DNA of 58,311 bases from Acidimicrobiales bacterium (GTDB taxonomy: Bacteria; Actinomycetota; Acidimicrobiia; Acidimicrobiales; SHLQ01): positions 1 through 58,311 of the forward strand of contig JBPCTQ010000065.1 of NCBI GenBank assembly GCA_051011595.1, in the 5' to 3' direction. Position 1 is the stretch's first letter. Each line of letters starts with the position of its first letter. The notes under the pieces are model-generated. The model worked only from the letters and a program-made list of their open reading frames with translations, was not told where the DNA came from and did no database searches. This document shows, one piece after another, positions 2-46,160 of the stretch. Both the position numbers and the translations under genes were made by a program.

Positions 2-1744
2 GTCACCGGCGACGATCGACCATGTCTGGCCTCGGTCGCGGGTGACCCAGAGACCGGCCTCGCTGCCCGAGAACACCGTGCCGTCCTGGCCGTAGTGGGG
101 CGACACCGCCAGCAGTGACACACCAGCCGGGCCACTCGCCTCCCAGGTTCGACCGCCGTCGATGCTGACGAAGGTGCCGTTCCTGGTGCCGGCACACAAG
201 GTCGGATCGTCGGGATAGTCAGGACCGACCGCCAGCGAGCGGACCGGCCCGCCGACCGAGCCCAGCGCCACGAAGGTGCCCTCCTCGCCCCCCTCGTTGG
301 AGATGAACACCTCACCCTGGAGGCTGCCGAGAAACACGGTCTGGTCGGTGGCGAATCGAGGTGACAGCGCGACGATGAACTGACGGAGTTTGGTATCGGC
401 GGGTGGGTCGCTGACCACGTGCTGTGACCAGGTCGCACCCCGATCGCTCGATTTGAGCAGGTGCGTCCAACTGGACGAGAACAACGTGCCGTCCTGGGCG
501 TAGTCGGGTGAGAACACGATGTTGTGGAGCCGGATCACGGGGAGATAGGCGTTGTCGGTGGCCTGAACCGGTTCCAGCCCCCTGTCGACCAAGGTCCACG
601 ACTGGCCATCGTCGTCGGAGAGATAAGGCCCCTTCACGTAGGTGGCGACGGCCACGGTCTCGTCCTCGGCGTATGCCGGCGAGATCGCGATGCCGGTGAT
701 CACCTCGGACAGGACCTCGCGAGACTGCCAAGTGGCCATCTCATCGTCGGATCGGAACAGGCCATCGAAGCCGGCCAGGAACAACACCGTGTCGCCCGCC
801 GGTCCGATGGCCACGTCGAGCCCCCGGAAGTCGGGCACCCCGACGGCTTCGGCCTGACGGTCGGTGGTCAGGCCATCGGTTCGCGCTGTCCACGTTTCGC
901 CGCGATCGTCGCTGCGGTGACTGCCGGTCGACCACGTCGACGCCCACATCACCCCATCGTCTCGGAAGTCGGGAGATCGGTCGATGGCCATGATGCGTTC
1001 GTCGGGGAGCCCGGAGCCCATGGAGAGGAACGAGTCGCTCTGTTCATCGAAACGGACCAGCTCCCCGTCGGCTCCGCCCACCACCAGGTCGGTTCGATCG
1101 GTCACGAGCAGGGCGCTGACCTCGTCGTCGGCGATCGCCGATCGAGGCTCGCTCCACGATGCACCGGCATCGTCGGAGATCGACACCCGACCCCTGCGGT
1201 CACCGACAACGACCAAACCGTCCTCGCCGGTGGCGAACTCGACGGTCACGGCGCCACCGAGATCCGGCAGCAGCGACCATTGGCCGCCACCATCGGTGGT
1301 TCGGTACAGACCTCCGGCGAGATCGGTCAGCAGCGCGGTGTCGGGATCCGCTGGTGAGGTCACGAGCGACCGCACCGTTCCGCTGAAACCTCCGGCTGCG
1401 GCCAACCAGGAGTCGCCGCCGTCGGTGCTCCGGAACACGGTTGTCTCGGTACCCAGGTAGAGGGTGTCACGATCGGCCACCGACGTGGCGATGGTGGTCG
1501 CCACCCGGGGTAGATCGGTGGCCAGCGTCTGCCACCGGGCGCCACCGTCGAAGCTACGCAGCACCCGCCCCTGGGACACGGCGTAGACCGTCGACGTGGT
1601 GGCGAAGTCGGGCGAGGCCACAACAACGGCGATGTTGTCGTGGGGGGTGTGGGCCGAGACCGACGAATGGGCAAGCAGCACTCCCACTGCCGCAGCGACC
1701 ACACCAGCGGCGACGACCGCGGGCAGTCGCCCGAGGGCCGTCAC
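2..1744 (-). CDS. BNR/Asp-box (Ycf48/sialidase-like beta-propeller) repeat secreted protein; C-terminus cut by the window edge
   Basis: Absent from the ORF track because no stop lies in the window. Hand translation of the minus strand (codons ending at nt 2) gives AGLWVTRDRGQTWSIVAGD at nt 2-58 and RFATDQTVFLGSLQGEVFIS near nt 300-358. These are SxDxGxTW-type repeats paralogous to the 1741-4032 gene. The N-terminus VTALGRLPAVVAAGVVAAAVGVLLAHSSVSA/HTPHD looks like a signal peptide. The GTG start at 1744-1742 overlaps the upstream TGA (GTGA). Confidence 0.75.
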   Translation of the reverse strand, partial: MTALGRLPAVVAAGVVAAAVGVLLAHSSVSAHTPHDNIAVVVASPDFATTSTVYAVSQGRVLRSFDGGARWQTLATDLPRVATTIATSVADRDTLYLGTETTVFRSTDGGDSWLAAAGGFSGTVRSLVTSPADPDTALLTDLAGGLYRTTDGGGQWSLLPDLGGAVTVEFATGEDGLVVVGDRRGRVSISDDAGASWSEPRSAIADDEVSALLVTDRTDLVVGGADGELVRFDEQSDSFLSMGSGLPDERIMAIDRSPDFRDDGVMWASTWSTGSHRSDDRGETWTARTDGLTTDRQAEAVGVPDFRGLDVAIGPAGDTVLFLAGFDGLFRSDDEMATWQSREVLSEVITGIAISPAYAEDETVAVATYVKGPYLSDDDGQSWTLVDRGLEPVQATDNAYLPVIRLHNIVFSPDYAQDGTLFSSSWTHLLKSSDRGATWSQHVVSDPPADTKLRQFIVALSPRFATDQTVFLGSLQGEVFISNEGGEEGTFVALGSVGGPVRSLAVGPDYPDDPTLCAGTRNGTFVSIDGGRTWEASGPAGVSLLAVSPHYGQDGTVFSGSEAGLWVTRDRGQTWSIVAGD

Positions 1745-4032
1745 GAATGGGCCACCTCGTCATCGGGCCGAGACCGCCGCCAGGCGAACGCGGCGCCGAC
1801 GACGGCCAACACCACGAGGGCACCGACGCCGATCACCATGGCGGCCGACGGGCCGTCGTCGTCGCCGTCGTCGTCGGCCGGCGGCAGCTGGTTGACGTCT
1901 TCGTCGACCAATGTGGTTCCCGGCGGCGTGGTGGCGGAGGGCTCGGGCGAAACATCAAGAACGAACTCGGCGGCCGGCGGCACGGCCAACGGGTCCCAGC
2001 TGGTGCCGCCGTCGGACGACTTCAGCAGGGTCGCCCCGCTGTACCCGAACACCGTGCGGTCGGTTGCGAAGTCGGGCGAGAAGTGGATGGGCTCGGCGGT
2101 CGGGTTCGAGAAGTCGGCGAGCAACAGGTTGTCGCTCAGAAGGTCGCTGCCGGTGGGCTGAAAGGTCTCGCCGCCATCGACGGACTCGTACAGGCCCTTG
2201 CCCCGCACGCTGACCAGCAGGAACTGGTCCTCGACATAGCTCGGCGACGTCTCCACTCCCTCGATCCGGTTCTCGGCCAGGTCGGGATCGTCGGCCGGCT
2301 GCCAGGTGTCGCCACCGTCACGAGTGATGAGCAGACCTTCGGTGCTGCCGGCGAAGACCGTCTGGTCGTTGGCGTAGTCGGGAGAGATCGCCAGCAGCGA
2401 GGTGGTCGTAGGTCCGCCGGTATCGGTCCATGTCGCCCCGCCGTCGTCGGAACGCATGACCGCCGAGTCGGTGCTCACGAACAGGGTGGGTACGTCGGGG
2501 AAGTCCGGGTGCAGCTCGATGGTTCGTACCCGGTCACCCGGCGATCCGAGCATCTCGAACGATTCGCTGTCACCCCGTTCGGTCGAACGGTAGATCTCGC
2601 CCTGCCGGGTGCCGAGAAAGATGGTGCCGTCGTCGGCGAACGCAGGCGACACTCCGATGACGAACTGGCGCAACCGAGAACCGGTGGGCTCGGACACGAA
2701 GTTCTCCTGCCACGTGGCGCCGCCGTCCTCGGACCGCAACAGCCGCGTCCAGCTGGCCGAGAAGATGGTGCTGTCGTTGGCGTAGTCGGGAGAGAACACG
2801 ATGTTGTGCAGGCGCAGCACCGGGAGCAGTTTGTTGCCGTCGGACAGCTCCCGTTCGATGCCGCTATTGGCGGCCACGAACGTGGCCCCGGCGTCGGTGG
2901 ACACGAAGGCTCCCTTGACGTAGGTGGCCAGGGCGATGGTGGCATCGTCGGCGTACGCCGGTGAGACGTCGAGCCCGACGATCATCTCCGAGAGTGTCTG
3001 CAGGCTGGTCCATGTCTCCCCGCCGTCGTCGGACCGGAACGGACCATCGAAGGCGGCCAGGAACAAGACGTGCTCGCCTTCGGGCCCGGTCCCGATGTCG
3101 AGGTTGTAGAAGTCGGCGACCCCGATCTCGCCCGATTGGCGATCGACGGTGAGCCCCTCGTCGCGGAGCTCCCAGCTCTGACCGCGATCGGCCGAGAAGT
3201 ACACCCCGTCGACGTCGGTGGACACCCAGATCATGTCGTCATCGGCGAACGACGGCGAGGTGACGATCCCGGCGATTCCCTGGTCGGTGGGCAAGCCGTT
3301 GGAGATGTCGGAGAATGTCTCGCCCAGATCGTCGGACAAGTGCAACGAACCGTCCGATCTCCCCACCATGAGCACGCTGGTGGTGCCGTCGTGATCGACG
3401 GCCACGGCGCCGGTGCCGCCGCTGCCGGGTACTTCGATGGGACGCCATGTCTGGCCCGCGTCCTCGGACAGGTTCACCGGCCCGCTGGAACTACCGGCCA
3501 GCACGAGATCGGACCCGGCCGGGCCGAATCGCACAGCACCGATGGACACACCGGCGGGCTCCCATTGTTCGCCGGCGTCGGAGGTACGGAAACCTCGGCC
3601 ACTGGTGGTGGCCACGATCGCCGTGTCGGGATCGTCGGGTGAGACTTCGATGATGCTGGTGTCGGTGTTGGGGAGGCCCGACGAGATCGTCGTCCAGGTG
3701 TCGCCGCCGTCGTCGGACCGGAACACGCCCGTCCCGGACGAGACGTAGATGCGGTTGCCGTCCGAGGAGGGGATCGCCACCTGACGAAGTTTGTCCGTGG
3801 GGATCCCGGTGACCAGGGTGGCCCACGTGGCACCGCCGTCGGTGGAACGCAGCAACCGATTCTGGCTGGTGGTGTAGACCACCAGGTCATCGGCGTAGGT
3901 GGGCGACATCGCGATGTCGCGGGCGGTGTCGTGGGGTGTGTGGGCCTCAACCGTGGTCGGCGCAACAAGGGCCGACCCAAGAGCCAACACGAGGGTGAGG
4001 ACGAGTCCGACGAGCAGGACCCGGATGGACAC
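1741..4032 (-). CDS. BNR/Asp-box beta-propeller repeat protein with signal peptide and C-terminal transmembrane anchor
   Basis: ORF track 1741..4215. Repeated Asp-box motifs: STDGGATW, SDDGGDTW, SEDAGQTW, SDDGGETW, SEDGGATW, SDDGGATW, TRDGGDTW, SSDGGTSW. Start trimmed to GTG 4032 (VSIRVLLVGLVLTLVLALGSALVAPTTVEA/HTPHD signal peptide). C-terminal hydrophobic helix AAMVIGVGALVVLAVVGAAFAW is followed by RRSR. Confidence 0.85.
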   Translation of the reverse strand: MSIRVLLVGLVLTLVLALGSALVAPTTVEAHTPHDTARDIAMSPTYADDLVVYTTSQNRLLRSTDGGATWATLVTGIPTDKLRQVAIPSSDGNRIYVSSGTGVFRSDDGGDTWTTISSGLPNTDTSIIEVSPDDPDTAIVATTSGRGFRTSDAGEQWEPAGVSIGAVRFGPAGSDLVLAGSSSGPVNLSEDAGQTWRPIEVPGSGGTGAVAVDHDGTTSVLMVGRSDGSLHLSDDLGETFSDISNGLPTDQGIAGIVTSPSFADDDMIWVSTDVDGVYFSADRGQSWELRDEGLTVDRQSGEIGVADFYNLDIGTGPEGEHVLFLAAFDGPFRSDDGGETWTSLQTLSEMIVGLDVSPAYADDATIALATYVKGAFVSTDAGATFVAANSGIERELSDGNKLLPVLRLHNIVFSPDYANDSTIFSASWTRLLRSEDGGATWQENFVSEPTGSRLRQFVIGVSPAFADDGTIFLGTRQGEIYRSTERGDSESFEMLGSPGDRVRTIELHPDFPDVPTLFVSTDSAVMRSDDGGATWTDTGGPTTTSLLAISPDYANDQTVFAGSTEGLLITRDGGDTWQPADDPDLAENRIEGVETSPSYVEDQFLLVSVRGKGLYESVDGGETFQPTGSDLLSDNLLLADFSNPTAEPIHFSPDFATDRTVFGYSGATLLKSSDGGTSWDPLAVPPAAEFVLDVSPEPSATTPPGTTLVDEDVNQLPPADDDGDDDGPSAAMVIGVGALVVLAVVGAAFAWRRSRPDDEVAHS

Positions 4033-4137
4033 GTCCCGGGCCGGTGATCGCAGCGTGGAAGGGCGAGTTGGCACGGGTAACGATGGTAGAGGTCGGTCTC
4101 GACAATCCCGAAAGCGGGATATTGGTAGGATCCGCCC

Positions 4138-4797
4138 ATGGACCCGGTTGCGCCGGCCGACACCGAGCAGGCACAGCGCCGGTATCGCGCCATCTCTGCC
4201 GAGTACGAGCGTCACGCTCGCCTGGTCGGTCCCCTACGCCGCCGGGCGGTGCAGCGACTCAAGCTGCGCGACGGCGACCACGTGCTCGACATGGGTTGCG
4301 GCACCGGCACCAGTTTCGAGTTGCTGCGAGCGCAGGTCGGCCACACCGGCAGGGTGACCGGCGTCGATCTGAGCGATGCCATGGCATCGGTGGCTCGGCA
4401 GCGTATTGGCGATCACGGATGGCGCAATGTCGACGTGGTGGTCGGTGACGCCGCCACGGTCACCCTGCCCGACCGCGTCGACGGTGTTCTGTTCTTCGAG
4501 ACCCATGACCTGTTGCGAACCCCGGCCGTGGTGCAACGCTCGGTCTCGGCCGCTCGGCCCGGTGCACGAGTGGTGGCCTTCGGTCCGTCCACATCGGTCC
4601 GTTGGGCCGTACCGGTCAACGCCATCGTTCGTTCGGTGGCGAAGCGGTACGTGACCACCTTCGACGGCTTCGACGAACCGTGGAGTCACCTGGCCCGCTT
4701 GCTGCCCGACCTGCGCGTCCATCGTCTCTTCCTCGGGGGTGCGTATCTGGCCATCGGTGTTGCTCCTTCCGGGTTCACCGCGGCCACCCAGACGTAG
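4138..4797 (+). CDS. class I SAM-dependent methyltransferase
   Basis: ORF track 219 aa. Motif I VLDMGCGTGTSF, then RVTGVDLSDAM and a downstream acidic loop. TAGGAT -10-like hexamer lies 6 nt before the ATG, so the mRNA is possibly leaderless. Confidence 0.8.
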   Translation: MDPVAPADTEQAQRRYRAISAEYERHARLVGPLRRRAVQRLKLRDGDHVLDMGCGTGTSFELLRAQVGHTGRVTGVDLSDAMASVARQRIGDHGWRNVDVVVGDAATVTLPDRVDGVLFFETHDLLRTPAVVQRSVSAARPGARVVAFGPSTSVRWAVPVNAIVRSVAKRYVTTFDGFDEPWSHLARLLPDLRVHRLFLGGAYLAIGVAPSGFTAATQT

Positions 4798-25209: not shown

Positions 25210-27870
25210 TCAGGGCCCGAACGTGGCCAGCCGTGGGCTACGACTGGAGCCGCCCTGGGCCCGAATCCAGTCGATCGCTTCTTCGAGGGTGGCCAGCGTG
25301 GACTCGGCCAGGTCGTCCATCGTGAGCGACGAGACCTCGTCGACCCGGGCGGCAGCCAACGCATCCAGTGCCGCCACGTGGCAGAACGCGAACGCACCGG
25401 AGTAGGGGCTGGCCATCACCGCCGCCCGCAGCCGCACCGCCTCGTCGCGCTCGTCGAGCAACCACAGCAGTTTGGCGATGGCATCGTGGAGGTACCACTG
25501 ATCCGACGCCTGCCCGATGTCGCGTGTGACCCGGACGGCGTCGGCGGCGGCCTCCAGAACCGCCTCGTCGATGTCGCCCGACATGCAGGCGGCGGCCAAC
25601 CGGGCCAGCACCGCGTGGTGGGCGTGATAGCGGTCGAAGGCCGCTCCCGGATCGACCGCAAAACTCCAGAACTCGTCGGCCGCCGCGGTGACGCCATCCG
25701 GATCGCCATCGGCACAGGCCAACCGGGCTCGGGCCTCGAACCAGAATCCGGCGGCCTGCGGGAAGCTGCGGCCCACGGTCTCGAGCGCCGCCACCGCGTC
25801 GCGCGCCTCCGGTCGCGTGGCATCGACCATGACCCCCAGGTAGTTGACCCCGACATAGGCCTCGGGCTCGGAGGTGTCGATGCCGTCGAGCAACTGGATC
25901 GAGCCGTCGACATCGCCGGTGGTGTACGCCAGCACCGTGGCGTGGGTGCCCGATGGATAGAACCGCTCCGGTCGGTAGGCCGGCATGGCCTCGGCCATCT
26001 CGATGAGACGCCAGGCGCGATCGATCTCGCCACGAAAGAAGGCGGCGTGTGCCCCTTGGCCGGCCACCTGGGGTCCCAACGGATGTTCGTCGGCTCCCGG
26101 AGCGGTGCACGCCAGCTCGCACCAGTCGCTGACCTCGAGCACGAGGTCGAGCAACAGCGAGCTCGACACCGGCCGCACCAGTCGTAAGCCGTTCGCCACC
26201 CGTCCCTGAGCCAGGTGCCAGTGCAGGGCCACCCGTAGATTGTCGACCTCGGCTTTGGGTTCGGGACCGTGGCGCCGAGCCCACTCGGTGTAGTAGTCGG
26301 CGTGGCGGTCCGACACCAGCTCGGCATCGTCTCGTCCGCGCAGCCGGGCCGCGGCGAACTGCCGGATCGGTTCGAGCAACCTGAACCGAGTCGTTGCCCC
26401 GCGCTCACTGACCACCACCAGCGACTTGTGGACCAGTTCGTCGAGCAGATCGAGCACGTCGACGGCATCGATCTCATCGTCGCCGACGACGGACTCGGCC
26501 GCCGAGATGGTGAATCCGCCGGCGAAGACCGAGAGCCGCTCGAAGGCCGCCTGTTCCTCAGGGGCCAGGTCTTCGTACGACCAATCGATGGCCGCGGTGA
26601 TGGTGCGATGGCGGGCCACCCGGTGACGGTCACCGCGAAGCAGGCGAAAGGACTCGCTCAGGCGGCTCCGGATCTCGGTCACACTCATCGACCGGGCCCG
26701 AGCCGCCGCCAGTTCGATGGCGAGCGGGATCCCGTCGAGTTGACGACAGATCTCGCTGATGGTGTCCAGGTCGCTGTCGTCGGGGTCGAAGGTGGACACC
26801 TGATCGGCGGCCCGTTGCACGAACAGCTGCTTGCCGGGCGAGTCGTCACCGTCGGTGGCCAGCGAGCGAACCGTCATGACGTGCTCGCCCGAGACACCTA
26901 TCGACTCGCGACTGGTGGTGATCACCACGGTTGCCGGCGAGGCGGCCAGGATGGTGTCGACCAGGTCGGCCACGGCATCGACCACGTGCTCACAGTTGTC
27001 GAGCACCAACAAGAGATTGCGGCGGCGAAGGTAGGTGCCGACGGCCTCGGCCACCGTGCCTCCCGACGCCGCCGACGTGTTGAGCGTGCGCGCCACCGCG
27101 TGCGCCACCGCGTCGCCCTGGGGCACCCCAGCCAGCTCACACAGCCACACCCCGTCCTCGAACTCGTCGATCAACTCGGCGGCGGCGGCCATGGCCAATC
27201 GGGTCTTGCCCATCCCGCCGGGTCCGCTGAGCGTGACCAGCCGACCGGCCCCGATCTGTTCGACGACATCGTCGATGTCGGCTTCGCGTCCCACCAGCGG
27301 GGTGTGCTCGACGGGCAGGTTGTGTGATCGTCGGTCGAGGGTTCGCAGTGGCGGGAAAGTCCGGGGGTCGATGACCTGCCACACCTGGCGGGCCTGGGAG
27401 AGGTCCTTCAGTCGGTGCTCACCCAACGAGACCGTGGGTGCGCCGGCCAGCAACTCGTTGGTGGTGTTCGACACCAGGATCTGGCCACCGTGACCAGCCG
27501 ACATCAACCGAGCGGCCACATTGAGCGTGTGCCCGAAATAGTCGCGATCCTTCTCCCACGTCTCACCGGTGTGCAGGCCCATCCGCACCGAGATGACCGT
27601 GTGGGCGGGCCAGGGCTCGGCGTCGAGGACCTGTTGGGTCTGGCGGGCGGCTTCCACGGCAATGTCGGGGTCCTGGAACGCGGCCGCGAACGAGTCGCCA
27701 GCCGTGGAGAAGACGTACCCTCCGTTGGCTTCGATGACCGTACGCAGGATGTCGTCGTGACGTTCGAGGGCACCCTGCATCTCGTCGGGGTGCCCTTCCC
27801 ACATGCGGGTCGAGCCCTCGATGTCGGTGAACAGGAATGTCACCATCCCGGTCGGGAGGTTTCCCGCCAT
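25210..27870 (-). CDS. class III adenylate/guanylate cyclase fused to a STAND/AAA ATPase and TPR-like helical repeats
   Basis: ORF track 25210..28518, trimmed to ATG 27870 (MAGNLPTGMVTFLFTDIEGSTRMW...). The upstream part of the ORF is antisense to deoC. Cyclase blocks FSTAGDSFAAAF and GLHTGE. Walker A LSGPGGMGKTRLA. Long helical C-terminus. No LuxR-type HTH is visible. Confidence 0.85.
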   Translation of the reverse strand: MAGNLPTGMVTFLFTDIEGSTRMWEGHPDEMQGALERHDDILRTVIEANGGYVFSTAGDSFAAAFQDPDIAVEAARQTQQVLDAEPWPAHTVISVRMGLHTGETWEKDRDYFGHTLNVAARLMSAGHGGQILVSNTTNELLAGAPTVSLGEHRLKDLSQARQVWQVIDPRTFPPLRTLDRRSHNLPVEHTPLVGREADIDDVVEQIGAGRLVTLSGPGGMGKTRLAMAAAAELIDEFEDGVWLCELAGVPQGDAVAHAVARTLNTSAASGGTVAEAVGTYLRRRNLLLVLDNCEHVVDAVADLVDTILAASPATVVITTSRESIGVSGEHVMTVRSLATDGDDSPGKQLFVQRAADQVSTFDPDDSDLDTISEICRQLDGIPLAIELAAARARSMSVTEIRSRLSESFRLLRGDRHRVARHRTITAAIDWSYEDLAPEEQAAFERLSVFAGGFTISAAESVVGDDEIDAVDVLDLLDELVHKSLVVVSERGATTRFRLLEPIRQFAAARLRGRDDAELVSDRHADYYTEWARRHGPEPKAEVDNLRVALHWHLAQGRVANGLRLVRPVSSSLLLDLVLEVSDWCELACTAPGADEHPLGPQVAGQGAHAAFFRGEIDRAWRLIEMAEAMPAYRPERFYPSGTHATVLAYTTGDVDGSIQLLDGIDTSEPEAYVGVNYLGVMVDATRPEARDAVAALETVGRSFPQAAGFWFEARARLACADGDPDGVTAAADEFWSFAVDPGAAFDRYHAHHAVLARLAAACMSGDIDEAVLEAAADAVRVTRDIGQASDQWYLHDAIAKLLWLLDERDEAVRLRAAVMASPYSGAFAFCHVAALDALAAARVDEVSSLTMDDLAESTLATLEEAIDWIRAQGGSSRSPRLATFGP

Positions 27871-27898
27871 GGGCTTACCGTAGCCGACTGGCTCCGGC

Positions 27899-27915
27899 GG
27901 TGAACACTGTTCACC
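27899..27915. promoter_or_regulatory. 17-bp inverted repeat GGTGAAC-ACT-GTTCACC in a divergent promoter region
   Basis: Perfect 7-3-7 palindrome in the 114-bp gap between the cyclase-STAND gene and deoC. Confidence 0.35.
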
Positions 27916-27984
27916 AACTGCGCCCCGAGCGCGGACAGCAGGGCCGGACAGCAGGGTTGTGGACGGGCCTGCCATGCTGGGCCC

Positions 27985-28656
27985 ATGACCCTCACCAAGA
28001 CCCAATTCGTGGCCATGGTCGACCACACCCTGCTGGCCGCCGACGCCACCGAGGCCGATGTCTCCGCCACGGTGGCCGACGCCATGCAGCTGCGCGCGGC
28101 AGCGGTGTGCATCAACGGCTGTTGGGTGGCTCACGCCCGCTCCCTCGTGGGTGACCAGCCGGTTGCCGTGTGCTCGGTGATCGGCTTCCCGCTGGGCGCG
28201 GGCACCAGCGAGGCCAAGGCCGCCGAGGCGCCCGACGCGGTGGCCAACGGTGCCAGCGAGATCGACATGGTGGTGAACCTCGGACTTCTTCGCGACCGGG
28301 CCCAAGAGCAGGTCGTCGCCGACATCGCCGCTGTGCGGGCTCGACTGTCCGGCGACGTGACCCTGAAGGTCATCTTGGAGACCGCCATCCTCTCCGACGA
28401 GGAGATCGTGGCCGGATGTCAGGCCGCGGAGACAGCCGGTGCCGACTTCGTGAAGACCTCGACGGGATTCCATGCGGCCGGAGGAGCCAGCACCCACGCG
28501 GTCGAGCTGATGGCCCACACCGTCGACGGCCGGTTGGGGGTGAAGGCATCGGGCGGCATCCGAACCCTGGCCGACGTGGTGAGCGTGGTCGACGCCGGCG
28601 CCACCCGCCTGGGTATGAGCGCAACTCTGGCCGTGGCCGCCGAGTTGGGCACCTGA
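27985..28656 (+). CDS. deoC: deoxyribose-phosphate aldolase
   Basis: ORF track 223 aa. VDHTLL, SVIGFPLG, EIDMV, LKVILET, the Schiff-base Lys context DFVKTSTGF, and KASGGIR. Confidence 0.9.
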   Translation: MTLTKTQFVAMVDHTLLAADATEADVSATVADAMQLRAAAVCINGCWVAHARSLVGDQPVAVCSVIGFPLGAGTSEAKAAEAPDAVANGASEIDMVVNLGLLRDRAQEQVVADIAAVRARLSGDVTLKVILETAILSDEEIVAGCQAAETAGADFVKTSTGFHAAGGASTHAVELMAHTVDGRLGVKASGGIRTLADVVSVVDAGATRLGMSATLAVAAELGT

Positions 28657-29784: not shown

Positions 29785-30741
29785 TCAAACCGGTGACAGC
29801 GTCACACCGATCTCGGCCGCCAGCGGGGCCAGCTCGGGCGCCGCGCCGACGCCGATGCCGTCCATGAGTCGGTTCATCATCTCGAAGTTGCCGGTGACCG
29901 CCGCGGCCCGAACCGCTCCGGCCTCGCCGACCTCGGCCGTCAGCTCGGCGAGCGCCGTGGACCGTTCGTCGCGATCACGCAACACGATCGCGTCGACCAG
30001 GTTCCTGAGCTGACGGCCCGCGGCCACACCCGGGGCGGGATCGATGGACTCGTCCTTGATGGCGGCCAGATCGATCGGTGTGTTGTTGGCGTCGGCGCTC
30101 CCCCGGAGCATCAGGGCGTGACCGGTGAGTCAATAGAAGCAGTCGTTCAGCAACGAGGTGCGGGCCGCAACGAACTCGATCTGGATGCGATGAAGGTCCT
30201 TGACGAGATGCTGATCGCCCATCTCGAACATGGAGAGATAGAGCACCTCGTGGAGATCCATCAGGGCATCGGTCTCGGCCGGGACCGACGACAGCGCGGT
30301 GGGCGGAAACGGGACCCCGACGGTTGGCACCAACGCCCCCTGGATCTCGGCCTCCTCGACCACGAGCCGGGAGGGGTCGCCCGGCAACGCATCGGGCAAC
30401 TCGGGCCGATCGACTCCGATGCCGAAGAAGAAGCTGTCGATGGCGCTGATGCGGGTGACGATGGCGAGGAGCTCGACGTAGGGACCCAACGCCAGGCCTC
30501 GGGCCACCAGGTCGTCGATCCATCGCTGATCGACGTGGGGATCGACGCTCAGCCGGATGGCGGCGTCGGTCGCCGCCTGGGAAAGATCGCCTGTGGGGGT
30601 GCCGTCACCGTCACGGGCGGCTCGGGCGGTGGCCGCGATGGCGACCCTTTGCACCCCTGTCCACCACGTGCCGGCCGCCGCCAGTCTTCGCCACTCGCGC
30701 TCGAGCCCGGTGGTGTACGAAGCGTCGAGCACGATGGTCAA
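29785..30741 (-). CDS. AhpD/carboxymuconolactone-decarboxylase (CMD)-family protein interrupted by one in-frame TGA at the second Cys of CxxC-x3-H: candidate selenoprotein (CxxU) or nonsense pseudogene
   Basis: ORF-track entries 30130..30741 and 29785..30111 are in the same frame, separated only by TGA 30132-30130 and six sense codons. Read-through gives ...SLLNDCFY[TGA]LTGHALMLRGS..., which is the AhpD active-site spacing C-x-x-C-x-x-x-H. A GCUCC-GGG-GGAGC hairpin (30109-30097) starts 20 nt after the TGA. The listed start is TTG 30741; GTG 30732 is an alternative. Confidence 0.55.
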
Positions 30742-30751
30742 GGGCGGCCGA

Positions 30752-31084
30752 TCAGCTCAGATCGTCGACCCGAGCCTTGGGCCCGTCCTTCTTCACACAG
30801 GAGATGCCCTTCTCCATGGCCGGTTTGCCCGAGTACATCTGGCTCCGACCGATGGGTTCACCATTGGCCGCCAGGACCACGAAGTACGGCTTGCCGTTCT
30901 TGGCCTTGCGCCGATCGAACTGCTTGTCCTTCTTGGCGTTCACCCGAACCGACTCGATGCCCTTCTTGGCACTGGCTTTCGCCTTGTAGCGCTCGCTGGT
31001 GAGCACCACCTGGCCGTTCGCCGCCTTGAGATTGAACAGGAACTGTCCGTCTCTGGCCTTGGTCAGATCGTACTTTGCTGCCAT
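30752..31084 (-). CDS. YegP-family (DUF1508) protein, two tandem repeats
   Basis: ORF track 110 aa. Duplicated F.L.A.NG.V...S..Y......GI.SV pattern (FLFNLKAANGQVVLTSERYKAKASAKKGIESV / YFVVLAANGEPIGRSQMYSGKPAMEKGISCV). GAGG RBS. Confidence 0.85.
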   Translation of the reverse strand: MAAKYDLTKARDGQFLFNLKAANGQVVLTSERYKAKASAKKGIESVRVNAKKDKQFDRRKAKNGKPYFVVLAANGEPIGRSQMYSGKPAMEKGISCVKKDGPKARVDDLS

Positions 31085-32060: not shown

Positions 32061-32624
32061 TCAGATCGATCGGCCCAGGAAGGCGGCCAGCTGGTCGGCT
32101 TTGCAGGCGTCGTCGGCACAGGACTGCTCGGGACCGAACGGTGCACCTTCGGGTCCTCGGAAGCTGTCCTGAATGGCCATCTTCGACTGTTGGAGCAACG
32201 AACCAGCCAGCTCGGGGGCCAGGTCGGTGGACTGTCCGGTGGCCTTGGCCAGATCCCAGCCGTGCTGGAAGGTATCGGTGGAGGCCAGGCCCATGACCGC
32301 CATCCCCGGCATGTCGCCGAAGGGCAGGCTGACAGTGCGCTGCAACGCACCTTCCTCGGCGAAGGCCGCCAAGGCCGCACCGGTGGCCTCGTCGAACGCG
32401 GCAACGTAGTCGCCGGCGGCGTAGTCGGTGTCGCCACCGGTGGGCGGGGTTCCGGTCATGCCGGCCAGGAAGAAGTGCTGACCACCCACGATGTGGTTGA
32501 TGAGCTCGCTCACATCCCAGGCGGCGCAGGGGGTGTCGGCATCGAGTTGGTCGGCCTGGACGCCGGCGAGCACCGAGCGGGTGGCGGCAACTGCTTGTTC
32601 GTAGGGCTGGGTGCTCATCGTCAT
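32061..32624 (-). CDS. DinB-like / TIGR03086-type (mycothiol maleylpyruvate isomerase N-terminal domain) protein
   Basis: ORF track 32061..32786, trimmed to MTMSTQPYE (ATG 32624; ATG 32618 has better spacing to GGAG). TPCAAWDVSELINHIVGG and GWDLAKATGQ are typical of the family. Confidence 0.75.
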   Translation of the reverse strand: MTMSTQPYEQAVAATRSVLAGVQADQLDADTPCAAWDVSELINHIVGGQHFFLAGMTGTPPTGGDTDYAAGDYVAAFDEATGAALAAFAEEGALQRTVSLPFGDMPGMAVMGLASTDTFQHGWDLAKATGQSTDLAPELAGSLLQQSKMAIQDSFRGPEGAPFGPEQSCADDACKADQLAAFLGRSI

Positions 32625-37524: not shown

Positions 37525-39861
37525 GTGATCGTGGAGCACCTCGCCGGCAAACGCGTCGCCATCACCGGCACCACGGGCTTCCTGGGAACGGCGCTGGTCG
37601 AGCGTCTCCTGCGGTCCGTTCCCGACATCGAGCTGGTGTTGTTGGTGCGTCCCGGCCGCCGGGGGGCCCAGCGCCGAGTCGAACGCGACATCCTCCGCAA
37701 CGACGCCTTCGACCAGCTCCGGGCGCAACACGGGGACGACTTCGACACCGCCGTGGCCAGCCGGGTGACCGCCGTGGCCGGCGACGTCAGCGTCGATGGC
37801 CTGGGGCTCGACGCCGCGGCCCGCCAGAACCTGGCCGAATGCGACATCGTCATCCACTCCGCGGCCGCGGTGTCGTTCGATTCACCGTTGGATCAGGCAG
37901 TCGAGATCAACCTGCTGGGTCCGGTTCGGATCGCCGAACTGCTCGATGACCTCGGCGTCGAGCCGCATCTGGTGGCCGTGTCCACGTGTTACGTCGCCGG
38001 CAGTCGCCGCGGCGACGCCCCCGAGATCGCGGTCGACGACAGCCCGTTCTTCGTCGATGTGGACTGGCGGCGCGAGGTCGATGCCGCCCGCCGGGCGCGC
38101 CACGATGTCGAAACCCAGAGCCGGGAGCCGGACCGCCTCACCGAGTTCCGCCGCCGGGCGCGTGCCGAGCTGGGAGCAGCCGGGACTCCGGCACTGGCGG
38201 CCAAGACGGAACAACTCCGCAACCGCTGGGTCACCGATCAGATGGCCGAGGCGGGTCGAGCCCGCGCCTCGTCATTGGGATTCCCCGACGCCTACGCCTA
38301 CACCAAGGCCCTCGGAGAAAAGGCCCTGCTCGAGACCACGGGCACCACCGGTCTCGACGTGTCGATCGTGCGGCCCTCCATCATCGAATCGGCGGTCGAG
38401 CATCCCTCGACCGGCTGGATCCGCGGATTCCGTATGGCCGAACCGGTCATCATCTCCTACGCCCGCGGGTTGCTGAAGGAGTTCCCCGGCGTTCCCGAGG
38501 GCACCGTCGACGTCATCCCGGTCGACATGGTGGTGGCCGCCATCTGTGCGGTGGCCGCTCGGGGCCACCAGCCAGGGCCCGACGGCACCGACATCATCCA
38601 GGTGGCATCGGGTTCGGTCAACCCGCTCAAGTACGGCCAACTCGTCGATCTCACCCAAGCATGGTTCACCGAGCACCCGTTGTACGACGAACGCGGTCAG
38701 CCGATCGCCGTGTCGTCATGGTCGTTCCCCGGGCGGGGTCGGGTGCAGAAGCAGCTGGAGCGGGCCAAGACCGTCATCGAACGAACCGAGGCCGTCGTCC
38801 ACAAGCTGCCGTTGCGGGGCCGCCAGGCCGAGTTCGGCGCCGTCCTCGAAGACCGGCGCGAACAAGCCGAACGGGCGCTCGGGTATGTCGAGCTGTACGG
38901 CGCCTACGCCGAGTGTGAGGCCATCTACGGTCTCGACCGCCTGCTCGGGTTGTGGGACAGCCTCGACGACACCGACCAGGCAGCTTTCGCCTTCGACCCC
39001 CGCGCCATCGACTGGCCCACGTACGTGCACGATGTGCATCTGCCGTCGGTGGTCAAGGCGGGCCGGGTCAAAACCACCCCGGGAGCCCGCACCGGACCCA
39101 GCCGCAGCGAACGCCTTCGTGGTCAGGTCCTGTCACCGGACCGACACCTGGCGGTCTTCGACCTGGAGAACACCCTCATCGCCTCCAACGTGGTGGCCTC
39201 CTACGCGTGGCTGGCCAGCCGCCGGCTACCCGACCGTGACCGGATTCGGTTCGTGATGCGAACGGTGGCCGAAGCCCCCACCTTGTTGGCCCTCGACCGG
39301 GTCGACCGCAGCGACTTCCTCCGGTACTTCTACCGACGCTACGACCTGGCGCCGGTCGACCAGCTCGAACGAGACGCGATCGAATCGTTCAGCGACCTCA
39401 TCCTCACCAAGTCGTTCCCCGCCGGCATTCGGCGGGTGCGCGAACACCGCCGGCTGGGGCATCGAACCGTCCTCATCACCGGCGCCCTCGACTTCGTGGT
39501 TCGTCCCCTCGAGCCGCTGTTCGACGACATCATCGCCCCATCGCTGGGGGTGAAGGGCCCGGCCGAACGCCGCACCTACGACGGCCGCATGACCGACGTC
39601 CCTCCCACCGGCGAAGCCCGCTACCAGGCCATGGCCGACTACGCCGCGGCCCACGACATCGATCTGCGCGAGTCGGTGGCCTACGCCGACTCGGCCAGCG
39701 ACCTGCCCATGCTCGAGGCAGTCGGCTTCCCGGTTGCCGTCAACCCCGAGACCAAACTGGCCACGTTGGCCCGCAAGCGAGGCTGGTTGGTGGAGCACTT
39801 CGCCAAGTCCCCCGGCGGTCCCCGCAAGCTGGTGCCCCTCGCCCCCCGGAGTGCTGTGTGA
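37525..39861 (+). CDS. fatty acyl-CoA/ACP reductase (extended SDR, male-sterility-type NAD-binding domain) fused to a HAD-IB (SerB-like) domain
   Basis: ORF track 778 aa, GTG start. ITGTTGFLGTALVERLL, YAYTKALGE (YxxxK). C-terminal HAD-IB blocks are VFDLENTL (DxE rather than DxD), ITGALDFVV and YADSASDLPML. Confidence 0.85.
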   Translation: MIVEHLAGKRVAITGTTGFLGTALVERLLRSVPDIELVLLVRPGRRGAQRRVERDILRNDAFDQLRAQHGDDFDTAVASRVTAVAGDVSVDGLGLDAAARQNLAECDIVIHSAAAVSFDSPLDQAVEINLLGPVRIAELLDDLGVEPHLVAVSTCYVAGSRRGDAPEIAVDDSPFFVDVDWRREVDAARRARHDVETQSREPDRLTEFRRRARAELGAAGTPALAAKTEQLRNRWVTDQMAEAGRARASSLGFPDAYAYTKALGEKALLETTGTTGLDVSIVRPSIIESAVEHPSTGWIRGFRMAEPVIISYARGLLKEFPGVPEGTVDVIPVDMVVAAICAVAARGHQPGPDGTDIIQVASGSVNPLKYGQLVDLTQAWFTEHPLYDERGQPIAVSSWSFPGRGRVQKQLERAKTVIERTEAVVHKLPLRGRQAEFGAVLEDRREQAERALGYVELYGAYAECEAIYGLDRLLGLWDSLDDTDQAAFAFDPRAIDWPTYVHDVHLPSVVKAGRVKTTPGARTGPSRSERLRGQVLSPDRHLAVFDLENTLIASNVVASYAWLASRRLPDRDRIRFVMRTVAEAPTLLALDRVDRSDFLRYFYRRYDLAPVDQLERDAIESFSDLILTKSFPAGIRRVREHRRLGHRTVLITGALDFVVRPLEPLFDDIIAPSLGVKGPAERRTYDGRMTDVPPTGEARYQAMADYAAAHDIDLRESVAYADSASDLPMLEAVGFPVAVNPETKLATLARKRGWLVEHFAKSPGGPRKLVPLAPRSAV

Positions 39862-41480
39862 GTTCGAAGTCCAAACCCAAACGAGCAGCTCGACCGGGGT
39901 TGGTCCTCGACGTCGACCGGTCCACTCCTCCCCTGGTGTTCCATCACGGCGAGGGGTTTCGTACCGAGAAGCTGCCGCCCGGGCGCAGCCGGGTGATCTA
40001 CCCGGCCGAACCGATCGACGGTCTGGCCGACCCCGACGGCGCCATCCGCCACGCCCTCGGTCACCCGCTCGGCGATTCGAAGCCGCTCGGTGAGCTGCTG
40101 TCCCCCGACATGCAGCTCACCATCGCCTTCGACGACATCTCCTTGCCCCTGCCGCCCATGCGTCGACCCGACATCCGTCAGCGCATCATCGAGGCGGTGC
40201 TCGACACCGCGGCCGAGGTCGGTGTCGACGACATCCACATCATCGCCGCCCTGGCCCTGCACCGCCGCATGACCGAGAGCGAGCTGCGTCACGCCGTCGG
40301 CGACCGGGTCTACGACGCCTTCGCCCCCAGCGGCCGGCTCTACAACCACGACGCCGAAGACCCCGACGGCATGGTCCTGCTGGGCGAGACCGACCACGGC
40401 GAAGAGGTCCAGATGAGTCGCCGGGCAGCCGAGAGTGACCTCATCGTCTACGTCAACATCAACCTGGTGGCCATGGACGGCGGTTGGAAGTCCACGGCCA
40501 CCGGATTGTCCGGCTACCAGGGTCTTCGTCACCACCACAACGTCGACACCATGCGCAAGAGTCGTTCGTTCATGGACCGCCACAAGTCCGAGCTCCATCA
40601 CAGCAACTGGCGGATGGGCAAGGTGATCCGCGACGCCGACGTGAACGTCTTCCAGATCGAGACCACCGTCAACAACAACACCTTCGGGGCCGACGGCCCG
40701 CTGTCGATGCTGCAGAAGCGCGAGTGGGAGTGGTCACCACGCGAGCGGGCCACCTTCGTGGGGATGCAGAAGGGCCTCGACCTCATGCCGGCCCGGGCCC
40801 GGCGCAAGGTCTTCAGCGGCTGGCAGGCGCCCTACGAGCTCACCTCGGTACAGGCCGGCGAGGTCGAGGCGGTGCACGAGGTCACCACCGAAAACGTGTA
40901 CCGCCAGCACCTGGTACCGGTCGAGGGCCAGACCGATGTGCTCACCATGGGTCTGCCCTACATCTGCCCGTACAACGTGAACTCGATCATGAACCCGATC
41001 CTGGTCATGTGCCTGGGGCTGGGGTACTTCTTCAACCTGTACCGGGGTCAGCCCCTCGTACGGGAGGGCGGGGTGTTGATCATGAGCCACCCCACACCCT
41101 GGGAATTCCATCCCGTCCACCACCCCAGCTACATCGACTTCTTCGAGCAGGTCCTGGCCGACACCACCGACCCCCTCGAGATCGAACAGAAATACGAGAC
41201 CCAGTTCGCCGAGGACGAGTGGTACCGCCATCTGTACCGCACCTCACACGCCTACCACGGCGTCCATCCGTTCTACATGTGGTACTGGGGTTCGCACGCC
41301 CTCCAGTGGCTGGGCCAGGTCATCATCGTGGGCGGCGACACCAAAGCCGTCCGGCGCCTGGGATTCCGCCCGGCGTCCACCCTGGCCGATGCCCTCGAGA
41401 TGGCCAGCGACGTCGTCGGCCCCCAGCCCACCATCACCCATGTCCACAACCCGCCCATCTTGATGGCCGACGTGTCGTGA
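39858..41480 (+). CDS. LarA-like (lactate racemase N-terminal domain, DUF2088) protein
   Basis: ORF track 540 aa. The GTG start overlaps the upstream TGA (GTGA). Blocks IAFDDISLPLPP, IIAALALHRRMTESE and AMDGGWKSTATGLSGYQGLRHHHN resemble LarA DITRP / THR / GGRKS...H blocks as I remember them. Confidence 0.7.
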   Translation: MSSKSKPKRAARPGLVLDVDRSTPPLVFHHGEGFRTEKLPPGRSRVIYPAEPIDGLADPDGAIRHALGHPLGDSKPLGELLSPDMQLTIAFDDISLPLPPMRRPDIRQRIIEAVLDTAAEVGVDDIHIIAALALHRRMTESELRHAVGDRVYDAFAPSGRLYNHDAEDPDGMVLLGETDHGEEVQMSRRAAESDLIVYVNINLVAMDGGWKSTATGLSGYQGLRHHHNVDTMRKSRSFMDRHKSELHHSNWRMGKVIRDADVNVFQIETTVNNNTFGADGPLSMLQKREWEWSPRERATFVGMQKGLDLMPARARRKVFSGWQAPYELTSVQAGEVEAVHEVTTENVYRQHLVPVEGQTDVLTMGLPYICPYNVNSIMNPILVMCLGLGYFFNLYRGQPLVREGGVLIMSHPTPWEFHPVHHPSYIDFFEQVLADTTDPLEIEQKYETQFAEDEWYRHLYRTSHAYHGVHPFYMWYWGSHALQWLGQVIIVGGDTKAVRRLGFRPASTLADALEMASDVVGPQPTITHVHNPPILMADVS

Positions 41481-43796: not shown

Positions 43797-43822
43797 CTTG
43801 TATCAAACTTGACTACTACAAG
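43797..43822. promoter_or_regulatory. inverted repeat CTTGTA-N14-TACAAG in the GntR/aconitase divergent region
   Basis: Seen in the relatively AT-rich 115-bp intergenic region. It does not cleanly match the HutC-type GT-N-TA-N-AC core. Confidence 0.25.
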
Positions 43823-43886
43823 CACAGACGCTACAACTTCGGGTAGAACAACACCAGGACCCATTCCCCCCACCGAGGACTCCGCC

Positions 43887-46160
43887 ATGGCCGTCTACGC
43901 CAACACCCCCATCGAGCTCATCCAGAACGTCTACGCCACATTGGGCGACCGTCTGGCTGCCGGGCGCCAGAAGCTCGGTCGACCGCTCACCCTGGCCGAG
44001 AAGATCCTGGTGAACCACCTCGACGCGGCCGACCAGGAGCTCGAGCGGGGCGAGTCCTATGTCGACCTGCGGCCCGATCGGGTTGCCATGCAGGATGCCA
44101 CCGCTCAGATGGCCTGGCTGCAGTTCATGACCGCCGGTCTCGACGAGGTGCAGGTTCCCACCACCACACACTGCGACCATCTCATCCAGGCGCGCGACGA
44201 CGGCAAACGCGATCTACTGGCGGCGGTCGAGAACAACGAAGAGGTGTACGACTTCCTCGAGTCGGTGTGCGCCAAGTACGGGGCCGGTTTCTGGAAACCG
44301 GGCAGCGGCATCATCCACCAGGTGGTGCTCGAGAACTACGCCTTCCCCGGCGGCATGATGATCGGCACCGACAGCCACACCCCCAACGCCGGTGGCCTGG
44401 GCATGATCGCCATCGGTGTCGGCGGCGCCGACGCGGTCGATGTGATGACCGGCTTTGCCTGGAACGTCAAGTGGCCCAAGGCCATCGGTGTGCACCTCAC
44501 CGGCGAACTGAACGGCTGGTCGTCCCCCAAGGACGTGATCCTCAAGGTGGCCGAGATCCTCACCGTGAAGGGTGGCACCGGCGCCATCGTCGAATACTTC
44601 GGGCCTGGAGCCAACAGTCTCAGTGCCACCGGGAAAGCCACCATCTGCAATATGGGAGCCGAGATCGGCGCCACCACCTCGCTGTTCGGCTACGACGACG
44701 CCACGGCCCGGTACCTCAAGGCCACCGGTCGCGAAGAAATCGCCGACGCCGCCAACGCGGTGGCCCACGACCTTCGCGCCGACGACGAGGTGCTGGCCGA
44801 TCCGTCCCGGTTCTACGACCAGGTGATCGAGATCGACCTGTCGACGCTGCGCCCCCACATCAACGGACCCCACACCCCCGACCTGGCCCGCGAGGTGTCG
44901 GCGCTGGGCGACGAGGCTCGAGCCCAGGGTTGGCCACTCGAGGTCAGCGCGGCACTTGTCGGTAGTTGCACCAACTCGAGCTACGAAGACATCACCCGCG
45001 CCGCTTCGATCCTTCGCGACGCGGCGGCCAAAGGGCTCACGGTGAACGCCCCGCTGATGATCACTCCGGGTTCGGAGCAGGTTCGGGCCACCATCGAACG
45101 CGACGGACTGCTCGCCGACTTCGAGGCGGCCGGCGCCACCGTGCTGGCCAATGCCTGCGGCCCCTGCATTGGCCAATGGGACCGCAAAGACGTCGAGGAC
45201 GGCACCGCCAACAGCATCGTCACCTCCTACAACCGCAACTTTCCGAAACGCAATGACGGTTATGCGAGCACCCTGGCCTTCGTGACCTCACCCGAAACGG
45301 TGGTGGCGTTGGCCCTGGCCGGCAGCCTCGACTTCGATCCGGTGAACGGCAGCCTGGTCAACGACGACGGCGACTCGGTCACCCTGGCCGAGCCGGTGGG
45401 TGTCGAGCTGCCTCCGGGCGGCTTCGACGAGGGCGAAAGCGGTTTCATCGCTCCGCCCGACAACGGCGGCGCCATCGAGGTGCGGGTCTCCCCCACCAGC
45501 GACCGGCTGCAGGTGCTCACCCCGTTCCCGGCGTGGGACGGCAACGACTACGCCGACATGCCCGTGCTGCTCAAGGCCCAGGGCAAGTGCACCACCGACC
45601 ACATCTCCATGGCCGGCCCGTGGCTCAAGTACCGCGGTCACCTCGAGAACATCTCGGGCAATCTGTACCTGGGTGCGGTCAACGCCTTCGGTGGTGAGGT
45701 CGGCACCGGCAAGGATCAACTCGACGGCGAACGACGGTCGTACCCCGACATCGCCCGCAACTACCACGAGAACGGCGTGAGCTGGGTGGCCGTGGGTGAC
45801 GAGAACATGGGTGAGGGTTCCTCCCGCGAACATGCGGCCATGGAGCCGAGGTTCCGTGGCGCCCGGGTGGTCATCGCCCGCTCCTTCGCCCGCATCCACG
45901 AGACCAACCTCAAGAAGCAGGGCATCCTGCCGCTCACCTTCGCCGATCCGGCCGACTACGAGAAGGTGCAAGAAGACGACCGGGTGGCCGTGAAAGGGCT
46001 GGCCGACCTGGCGCCCGATGCCGAGGTGACCGTGGTGCTCACCCACGGCGACGGCAGCACCGACCAGATCTCGACCCGACACACGTTGAGCGACGATCAG
46101 ATCGGCTGGTTCCGGGCCGGCAGTGCCCTGAACGTCATCCGCCAGCGCACCGGCGGCTGA
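43887..46160 (+). CDS. acn: aconitate hydratase, mitochondrial-type (~757 aa)
   Basis: ORF track 43809..46160, trimmed to ATG 43887. [36 protein letters not shown] (three cluster Cys), [12 protein letters not shown]. Confidence 0.9.

Follow-up and report, generated by a model that had tools for sequence, protein, structure and literature searches.

An in-frame UGA in an AhpD-related gene of an Acidimicrobiales bacterium very probably encodes selenocysteine

The protein family curated in NCBIfam as NF041238 (‘AhpD_rel_CFYUT, alkylhydroperoxidase-related (seleno)protein’) is entered in a 2026 review as a CxxU selenoprotein (U, selenocysteine or Sec), equated there with ‘hypothetical protein 1’ of the Sargasso Sea and credited to a 2005 study (PMC13188914); the Sargasso Sea selenoproteome of Zhang et al. 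(2005) contained four sequences that share a conserved CXXU motif, to which no function was assigned (PMC1088965). Here we analyse a contig of 58,311 bp from the metagenome-assembled genome of an Acidimicrobiales bacterium (JBPCTQ010000065.1; the whole stretch is called the window below), in which a minus-strand gene at 29785-30741, interrupted by one in-frame UGA, very probably encodes a 318-aa member of this family. Two other described selenoprotein families, AhpD-like 1 (COG2128/TIGR01926) and AhpD-like 2/CMD (PF02627), resemble the window protein in their AhpD/CMD fold, in Sec at the second Cys of CxxC, in their occurrence in marine or environmental bacteria and in a selenocysteine insertion sequence (SECIS) just downstream of the codon (PMC1088965, PMC2398784); however, those proteins are ~180 aa long and pass TIGR01926 or PF02627, whereas the window protein has an extra N-terminal helical region. 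Among enzymes that use Cys, the proton relay has been assigned to Glu118/Cys130/His132/Cys133/His137 in M. tuberculosis AhpD and to Glu36, Cys48, Tyr50, Cys51 and His55 in P. aeruginosa PA0269 (PMC3141380).

Along the minus-strand frame from 30741 to 29785 the sole interruption is TGA 30132-30130. The two open reading frames (ORFs) on either side of it share one frame and are separated only by this TGA and six sense codons (CTC ACC GGT CAC GCC CTG); translation through the TGA yields 318 aa, ...LLNDCFY-[TGA]-LTGHALML..., with the arrangement C201-x-x-U204-x3-H208. The initial annotation of this DNA had described the same split frame, the read-through NDCFY-[TGA]-LTGH and the resulting CxxU-x3-H, and its coordinates proved exact. 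In the window copy a frame of 114 codons is open after the UGA, with no frameshifts and no extra stops, and the G+C content at third codon positions (GC3) is coding-like in both halves of the gene (0.85 and 0.86; the window as a whole has 67.7% GC). The gene comprises the following features:

29785-30741 (minus strand): complete candidate selenoprotein coding sequence, 318 codons plus stop, with a TTG start at 30741, the predicted Sec-UGA at 30132-30130 and the true stop TGA at 29787-29785
30130-30741 (minus strand): upstream ORF, the N-terminal two-thirds, cut at the predicted Sec codon; 203 aa, TTG start; public ACR2QE_04025 / MGI9601027.1
29785-30111 (minus strand): downstream ORF, the C-terminal third, starting at internal Met211; 108 aa, ATG start; public ACR2QE_04020 / MGI9601026.1
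30130-30132 (minus strand): predicted Sec codon UGA, residue 204, where the AhpD CxxC motif has its second Cys; the codon reads TGA at 80/80 orthologous loci

We conclude, with a probability of about 0.92, that the two ORFs are one gene encoding a 318-aa AhpD-related selenoprotein of NF041238 and that the UGA is its selenocysteine codon, a reading drawn from sequence comparison. The read-through protein, searched with Cys in place of the stop, matched NF041238 at 236.8 bits (E = 4.2e-70; equivalog cutoff 175), aa 9-307 aligning on model positions 5-342 of 357 and spanning the UGA. As in NF041238 and ‘hypothetical protein 1’, the match lies above the cutoff over the full length, and the protein has a CxxU motif (C-F-Y-U), one predicted Sec and a downstream putative bacterial SECIS. 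It differs from what the model nickname implies in that the post-Sec residue is Leu (L/V in 79/81) rather than Thr, and from the majority of its relatives in having the SECIS loop CGGGG instead of CGUGC; it is otherwise an ordinary member. The assignment to an AhpD/CMD-family selenoprotein, made earlier from the sequence, is borne out by this match to a catalogued family. The family was already described in 2005 and is curated in NCBIfam, and is not new biology; novelty is low because family, motif and Sec usage have been on record since 2005.

Among 5.8 billion proteins searched, 37 relatives were found, with identities from 100% down to 38%. All 37 have lengths of ~203-205 aa and match no more than the first 60-64% of the query, and in the alignment all 36 homologues terminate exactly at NDC-x-[YF]. 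We then took the DNA for the best 80 of 376 related places in species-representative genomes, almost all of them Acidimicrobiia metagenome-assembled genomes (MAGs). The tblastn matches of these relatives extend across the UGA; the codon at the Sec column is TGA in 80/80 loci and never TAA, TAG, TGC or TGT; and the C-x-[YF]-U motif is found in 81/81 sequences, in the window as CFYU. This same-column arrangement of TGA is far beyond chance. Orthologues are also present on two complete chromosomes, OZ244195.1 and NZ_OZ242342.1.

The relatives continue in frame after the UGA with the peptide [LV]-x-x-H-x-x-M-L-[RS]-x-S, and their frame stays open for 107-142 codons (92 in one locus, probably owing to a contig end). 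In 21 independent pairs of relatives, with 14 SECIS codons excluded, the ratio of nonsynonymous to synonymous substitution rates (dN/dS) was 0.07-0.52 after the UGA vs. 0.10-0.51 before it. The His at position +4 is invariant and its codon switches between CAC (58) and CAT (23); the stretch from the UGA to the downstream ATG therefore appears to be read as protein. All family-invariant post-UGA residues are retained in the window copy (H208, L212, A251, G272, R291 and G297). To judge from these patterns of substitution, the region downstream of the UGA is translated and under purifying selection.

The mRNA immediately downstream of the UGA holds a hairpin that is conserved across the family and that, in the window, occupies the following positions (numbered from the U of UGA):

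30088-30123 (minus strand): putative SECIS hairpin, nt 10-45; 12 bp, -10.1 kcal/mol in a constrained fold, with covariation in the family
30096-30110 (minus strand): upper stem and apical loop of the SECIS, U23GCUC27 / G33AGCG37, with loop C28GGGG32 at 30105-30101
30111 (minus strand): bulged A22 of the SECIS

The short hairpin GCUCC-GGG-GGAGC at 30109-30097, 20 nt from the UGA, to which the initial annotation had pointed, is present and forms the upper stem, or core, of this element; as an alternative to the 5-nt loop, the window sequence could form a triloop GGG closed by C28-G32. In an ungapped alignment of the 54 nt from the UGA (alignment A2, 81 sequences), the family core is AUG-CUC-CGU-GCG-AGC, with the stem U23GCUC27 / G33AGCG37 and a loop of 5 nt that reads CGUGC in 46 sequences, AGUUG in 11, CGGGC in 6, CGUGA in 6 and other sequences in the rest. 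G29, C27 and G33 are each present in 81/81; 72 sequences have U at position 30 and the other 9 have G. In the lower stem (19-21 with 38-40, below bulged A22) 85.3% of cells are paired, vs. 32-56% with the partner slid by 1-3 columns; the covariation score is 0.215 vs. 0.134 ± 0.011 for shuffled alignments (0/500 reach it); and pair 21-38 occurs as GC in 41 sequences, GU in 13 and CG in 10. A register with a continuous stem and no bulge was rejected, covariation support for it being absent. The motif GCTC[CA]G[TG][GT]NGAGC occurs 78 times in 1.2 Mb of loci, 72 of them at the SECIS position.

Because the SECIS sits within coding sequence, we set the codon choice in it against that in the rest of the same genes:

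Leu+8: CTC in 80/80; background 0.46
Arg+9: CGT in 58/67; background 0.12
Ser+9: AGT in 14/14; background 0.05
Ala+10: GCG in 52/52; background 0.32
Ser+11: AGY in 80/80; background 0.24

In addition, column 33 (third position of codon +10) has G in 81/81 while the encoded amino acid varies (A, W, E, V, S, G). Judged from the alignment, these fixed codon choices and the G at column 33 are RNA-level constraints, and the SECIS sequence AUGCUCCGUGCGAGC would force the peptide motif M-L-R/S-x-S.

A published model of the bacterial SECIS (bSECIS) asks for 3-9 nt in the apical loop, 4-16 bp in the upper stem, a free energy of <= -7.5 kcal/mol, a UGA-to-loop distance of 16-37 nt and, within the first two loop positions, a G that in most cases precedes G/U (PMC13188914, Fig. 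2A). The window element agrees with this model on every count: its loop has 5 nt (CGGGG) or 3 nt (GGG); its upper stem has 5-6 bp (U23-G37 to C27-G33, plus C28-G32); its energy is -10.1 kcal/mol (nt 10-45), equal to the family median of -10.1, with 65/81 sequences passing -7.5; its spacing from UGA to apical loop is 24 nt (nt 4-27), identical in all 81; and C-G-G-G-G has its G within the first two positions. With the bSECIS consensus and the E. coli fdhF SECIS it has in common a hairpin immediately 3′ of the UGA within the ORF, a small apical loop with G then U/G, the 24-nt spacing and a bulge below the upper stem. It differs in having an A bulged out of the 5′ strand, where the fdhF SECIS has a bulged U; its sequence is specific to the family and lineage (AUGCUCCGUGCGAGC), and SelB binding by it is putative.

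Homologues without Sec provide a further comparison. When the 114 residues that follow the UGA were run exhaustively with HMMER against 1.84 billion representatives, 183 relatives were found, most of which are C-terminal fragments called from a conserved Met seven codons past the UGA. Eight are full-length, and at the Sec column three of these read CFYC/CPWC and one SRYC, and the remaining four carry Ser, Gly or Val; P0070 and P0110 (both CFYC) and P0148 (CPWC) are all encoded with TGC. In the DNA of five of these eight non-Sec forms, the Cys forms have TGC and the Ser forms TCG. On this sequence evidence the column shows Sec/Cys pairs, Sec being the dominant state and Cys the rare one. The same five forms served as a negative control for the hairpin: the C27/G33 closing pair is invariant in 81 Sec forms and broken in 4/5 non-Sec forms (Fisher p = 2.4e-6), and synonymous sites, which are frozen in the Sec forms, are relaxed in 4/5 non-Sec forms. 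One TGC form, L081:1501-2454 (ENA ERZ28013244, k141_2676011), keeps 7/8 SECIS pairs and the codons CUC-CGG-GCG-AGC, which suggests a recent change from Sec to Cys that has left a relic SECIS; in the other non-Sec forms the hairpin is lost.

The residues around the UGA correspond to those of the AhpD active site:

30118-30177 (minus strand): active-site segment E189-x11-C201-F-Y203-U204-x3-H208, the predicted AhpD proton-relay constellation

E189, C201, column 204 and H208 are invariant in the family alignment (A3), and all relay positions show little or no variation. When a profile built from 20 full-length members was compared with the PDB, it matched 6k40 (E = 6e-12), 2pfx (1.7e-10) and 2prr, 2oyo, 3c1l and PA0269 (2o4d; ~1e-7 to 1e-10) over residues ~161-300. 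The family sequence lNeCFyC(U)llaH aligns over LNRCVYCAVSH and INKCFYCLVAH of AhpD-like proteins in the PDB, so that the Sec column falls on the second Cys of CVYC/CFYC, the second active-site Cys at which the TGA had been placed from the outset. A weak match to M. tuberculosis AhpD (117-145 on 188-216) puts E189/C201/U204/H208 on Glu118/Cys130/Cys133/His137, and the spacing of E189/C201/Y203/U204/H208 equals that of the PA0269 set, with the same Tyr. With M. tuberculosis AhpD (1knc/1gu9) and PA0269 (2o4d) the window protein has in common the pattern Glu-x11-Cys-x-(His/Tyr)-Cys-x3-His and an all-helical fold; it differs from them by predicted Sec for the second Cys and by its N-terminal extension, its gene has no AhpC partner or lipoamide-system genes nearby, and its sequence similarity to M. 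tuberculosis AhpD is very remote (E = 0.09 to 1gu9).

We modelled the fold with AlphaFold2 (AF2) on the Cys-form orthologue P0070 rather than on the window protein, using a 54-sequence family alignment; P0070 is 41% identical to the N-terminal fragment of the window protein (P0001; alignment A4). The model is a single all-helical body (predicted local distance difference test, pLDDT, 97.1; predicted template-modelling score, pTM, 0.94). Its best Foldseek matches in the PDB are all of the AhpD/CMD fold, among them 6k40, 2prr, 3c1l, 3lvy and 2oyo and also the debrominase Bmp8 and S. pneumoniae AhpD, with probability ~1.0, TM-scores of 0.54-0.64 relative to the target and ~140-165 aligned columns. 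In the model a helix begins directly after the first Cys; its first turn contains the Sec-column residue and the His follows one turn on, which is the usual CxxC geometry. The N-terminal ~115-155 residues form a helical extension specific to the family, and the C-terminal domain has the AhpD/CMD fold. An internal duplication, with the N-terminal half matching the C-terminal half, was considered and dropped (hhalign probability 0.2).

Several observations weigh against our reading. The comparison with CMD and ahpD models that the initial annotation had suggested gave a divided result: NF041238 was passed, whereas PF02627 (Pfam CMD; 16.1 vs. 23 bits), TIGR01926 (26.7 vs. 81.8 bits) and TIGR00778 (15.4 vs. 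27.8 bits) stayed below their cutoffs. Because of the Pfam CMD and TIGR01926 scores, the link to AhpD is remote and the family stands separate from AhpD-like 1 and 2. Between the window and its relatives, dN/dS is 0.39-0.78 downstream and 0.35-0.44 upstream of the UGA, at near-saturated distances. The window hairpin taken alone is ordinary in single-sequence folding (z = 0.73 vs. shuffles), and is significant because of the comparative data only; its loop CGGGG is a minority variant (1/81, with G at position 30 in 9/81), and its lower stem has one mismatch, U20-C39. The Rfam SECIS models gave no match at the gathering threshold, nor any at E <= 10 on 29950-30250, a null result that is uninformative because Rfam barely covers bacterial SECIS elements; the caution with which the short hairpin had originally been presented was justified in both respects. 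As for the Sec machinery, the whole 58,311-bp contig has no tRNA-Sec and no tRNA of any kind, none of the 42 window ORFs matches selA, selB or selD, no tRNA-Sec was found up to 10 kb away from the gene in any of the 80 related loci, and tblastn with an approximate E. coli SelD as probe found no SelD in 1.2 Mb of related loci. Indirect support for Sec decoding comes from Actinomarinales, another order of the same class, for which selA, selB, selC and selD are reported in 84/84 complete genomes (bioRxiv 10.64898/2026.04.03.716425). A LysR regulator at 49468-50385 (plus strand) was considered as a sign of selenium metabolism and set aside as generic LysR similarity only, its score on NF040786 (‘selenium metabolism-associated LysR’) being 111.6 bits against a cutoff of 250, with the CynR, OxyR and GltC models equal.

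The initial annotation had set beside Sec the alternative of a fresh pseudogene, in which a Cys-type AhpD-like gene had been inactivated by a recent nonsense mutation (TGC/TGT to TGA) or by an error of sequencing or assembly. A single base change would be enough for this, TGC Cys forms do exist in the family and the record annotates two fragments; but TGA occupies precisely this column in 80/80 independent species genomes, all 36 protein-database homologues stop there, the downstream frame is intact and under apparent purifying selection, a dedicated conserved hairpin follows the codon, and Cys is the rare state of the family, not the common one. Close relatives with TGC and no conserved stem-loop, named beforehand as the sign of a pseudogene, are the opposite of what the loci hold, and we give this explanation next to no weight. 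The Sec proposal, on the other hand, has gained from the comparison of orthologues at the column, with TGA in 80/80 best loci and Cys in rare full-length homologues, from the selected downstream region and from the conserved, covarying SECIS. Two real genes, a 203-aa protein that ends at the UGA and a 108-aa protein begun at the ATG of Met211 by translational coupling, would account for the ATG found at +7 in 74/81 sequences and for the way in which gene callers routinely call both pieces. Yet 7/81 have CTG, TTT, TTC or ACG there instead of ATG; the six codons between UGA and ATG are conserved as protein and include the invariant His+4 (CAC/CAT), whose catalytic role is predicted; full-length Cys homologues exist as single chains; the AF2 model of P0070 is one compact domain through the junction, with CxxC/U and His on the same helix; and a split would part Cys201 from His208. 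This explanation, which had been ranked least likely at the start, is highly improbable on the strength of the junction and the full-length Cys homologues.

A further case is that of a true selenoprotein family in an organism that has lost Sec decoding and makes the truncated product only. The Sec machinery unseen on the contig, the slightly raised downstream dN/dS against the nearest relatives and the minority loop CGGGG would fit such a relic, but decay is hard to reconcile with the retention of H208, L212, A251, G272, R291 and G297, with an open 114-codon frame of GC3 0.86 free of frameshifts and extra stops, with a SECIS in agreement with the whole of the bSECIS model and with the universal presence of selA/B/C/D in a related Acidimicrobiia order; we consider it improbable. 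Finally, UGA reassignment exists in some bacteria, and a standard residue, Trp, Gly or Cys, might be inserted at the codon, by reassignment or by read-through independent of a SECIS. The chance of this is negligible: UGA is the normal terminator in 33/41 complete window ORFs and in 69/80 genes of the family itself; apart from the codon discussed here, the 58-kb window has a single in-frame TGA flanked on either side by coding signal, at 32061-32063 (minus strand), and that one is a gene boundary; the conserved hairpin with its G-[U/G] loop is a Sec-specific signal; and the site is a redox Cys position, the hallmark of Sec. The TGA at 32061-32063, considered as a second Sec codon, was rejected as the normal junction of two genes, one of the TIGR03086 family and one APH(6)-like, that share a frame by chance, and a scan of the related loci for in-frame TGA with coding signal on both sides gave no convincing CxxU or UxxC case.

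With the UGA read as Sec, expression of the gene would follow the known course of bacterial Sec insertion. UGA 30132-30130 would be decoded as selenocysteine in translation; the downstream mRNA would fold into the SECIS, its apical loop starting 24 nt after the UGA, and this hairpin would recruit SelB-GTP-Sec-tRNA(Sec). In the protein, Sec204 would be the attacking nucleophile, as its equivalent Cys133 in M. tuberculosis AhpD is reported to be from mutagenesis; it would then form a selenenyl-sulfide with C201, to be reduced by the cellular thiol system. By analogy, the product is most likely a thiol/selenol oxidoreductase with a peroxide-related role. No conserved synteny or partner gene, AhpC or other, adjoins the gene in the 80 related loci.

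It is possible, though unlikely, that the protein is no peroxidase adaptor and instead serves Acidimicrobiia as an essentially obligate selenoenzyme whose chemistry differs. We keep this alternative in view because Sec is found in 80/80 of the best species matches, with Cys or degenerate forms rare, and because the N-terminal extension has no detectable relatives and no conserved redox partner is encoded nearby. Its chemistry, again by analogy, may be reductive dehalogenation or another substrate-directed redox reaction, of which Bmp8, the CMD-fold debrominase among the structural matches, is an example; the N-terminal extension would in that case form the substrate site.

In the public record the gene is split into two ‘hypothetical proteins’, ACR2QE_04025 (MGI9601027.1) and ACR2QE_04020 (MGI9601026.1). 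These two entries should be merged into one 318-aa selenoprotein with a transl_except at 30130-30132. The same split recurs in hundreds of Acidimicrobiia MAG entries, nearly all database homologues being fragments of ~204 aa or ~108 aa, and the practical outcome of this work is a correction of annotation together with the description of a lineage-specific SECIS. The conserved element (the AUGCUCCGUGCGAGC core with its bulged A) offers a lineage-specific search pattern for further selenoprotein genes where Rfam fails, and the gene may serve as a marker: the uncultured Acidimicrobiales organism very probably has the selenocysteine-decoding trait.

Next to the gene, a 110-aa gene at 30752-31084 (minus strand) stops 10 nt short of the selenoprotein start codon; its match to the HVO_2922 family is weak (41 bits, cutoff 90), it may be co-transcribed, and it is not conserved beside the gene in the 80 related loci. 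Elsewhere in the window, a 1102-aa ORF at 25210-28518 (minus strand) overlaps deoC on the opposite strand at 27985-28656 (plus strand; TIGR00126, 216.8 bits); its first ~210 codons are probably an over-extension, with the real start probably near MAGNLPTGMVTFLFTDIEGST, and it resembles a large cyclase/ATPase-type regulator, which makes it a candidate for that class. The ORF at 39858-41480 (plus strand) strongly matches the LarA-like NPN-dependent hydroxyacid isomerases of the LarAH14/15/16 group (NF052592, 891.9 bits vs. cutoff 740). For an aconitase at 43809-46160 (plus strand) the top-scoring model is the ‘mitochondrial-type’ aconitate hydratase TIGR01340 (1106 bits) rather than bacterial AcnA, and a citrate synthase lies at 52667-53935. 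At 2-4215 (minus strand), two large adjoining ORFs of 581 and 824 aa, the first of which runs off the contig end, contain F510_1955-family glycosylhydrolase-like segments scoring 150 and 171 bits, just below the cutoff of 175.

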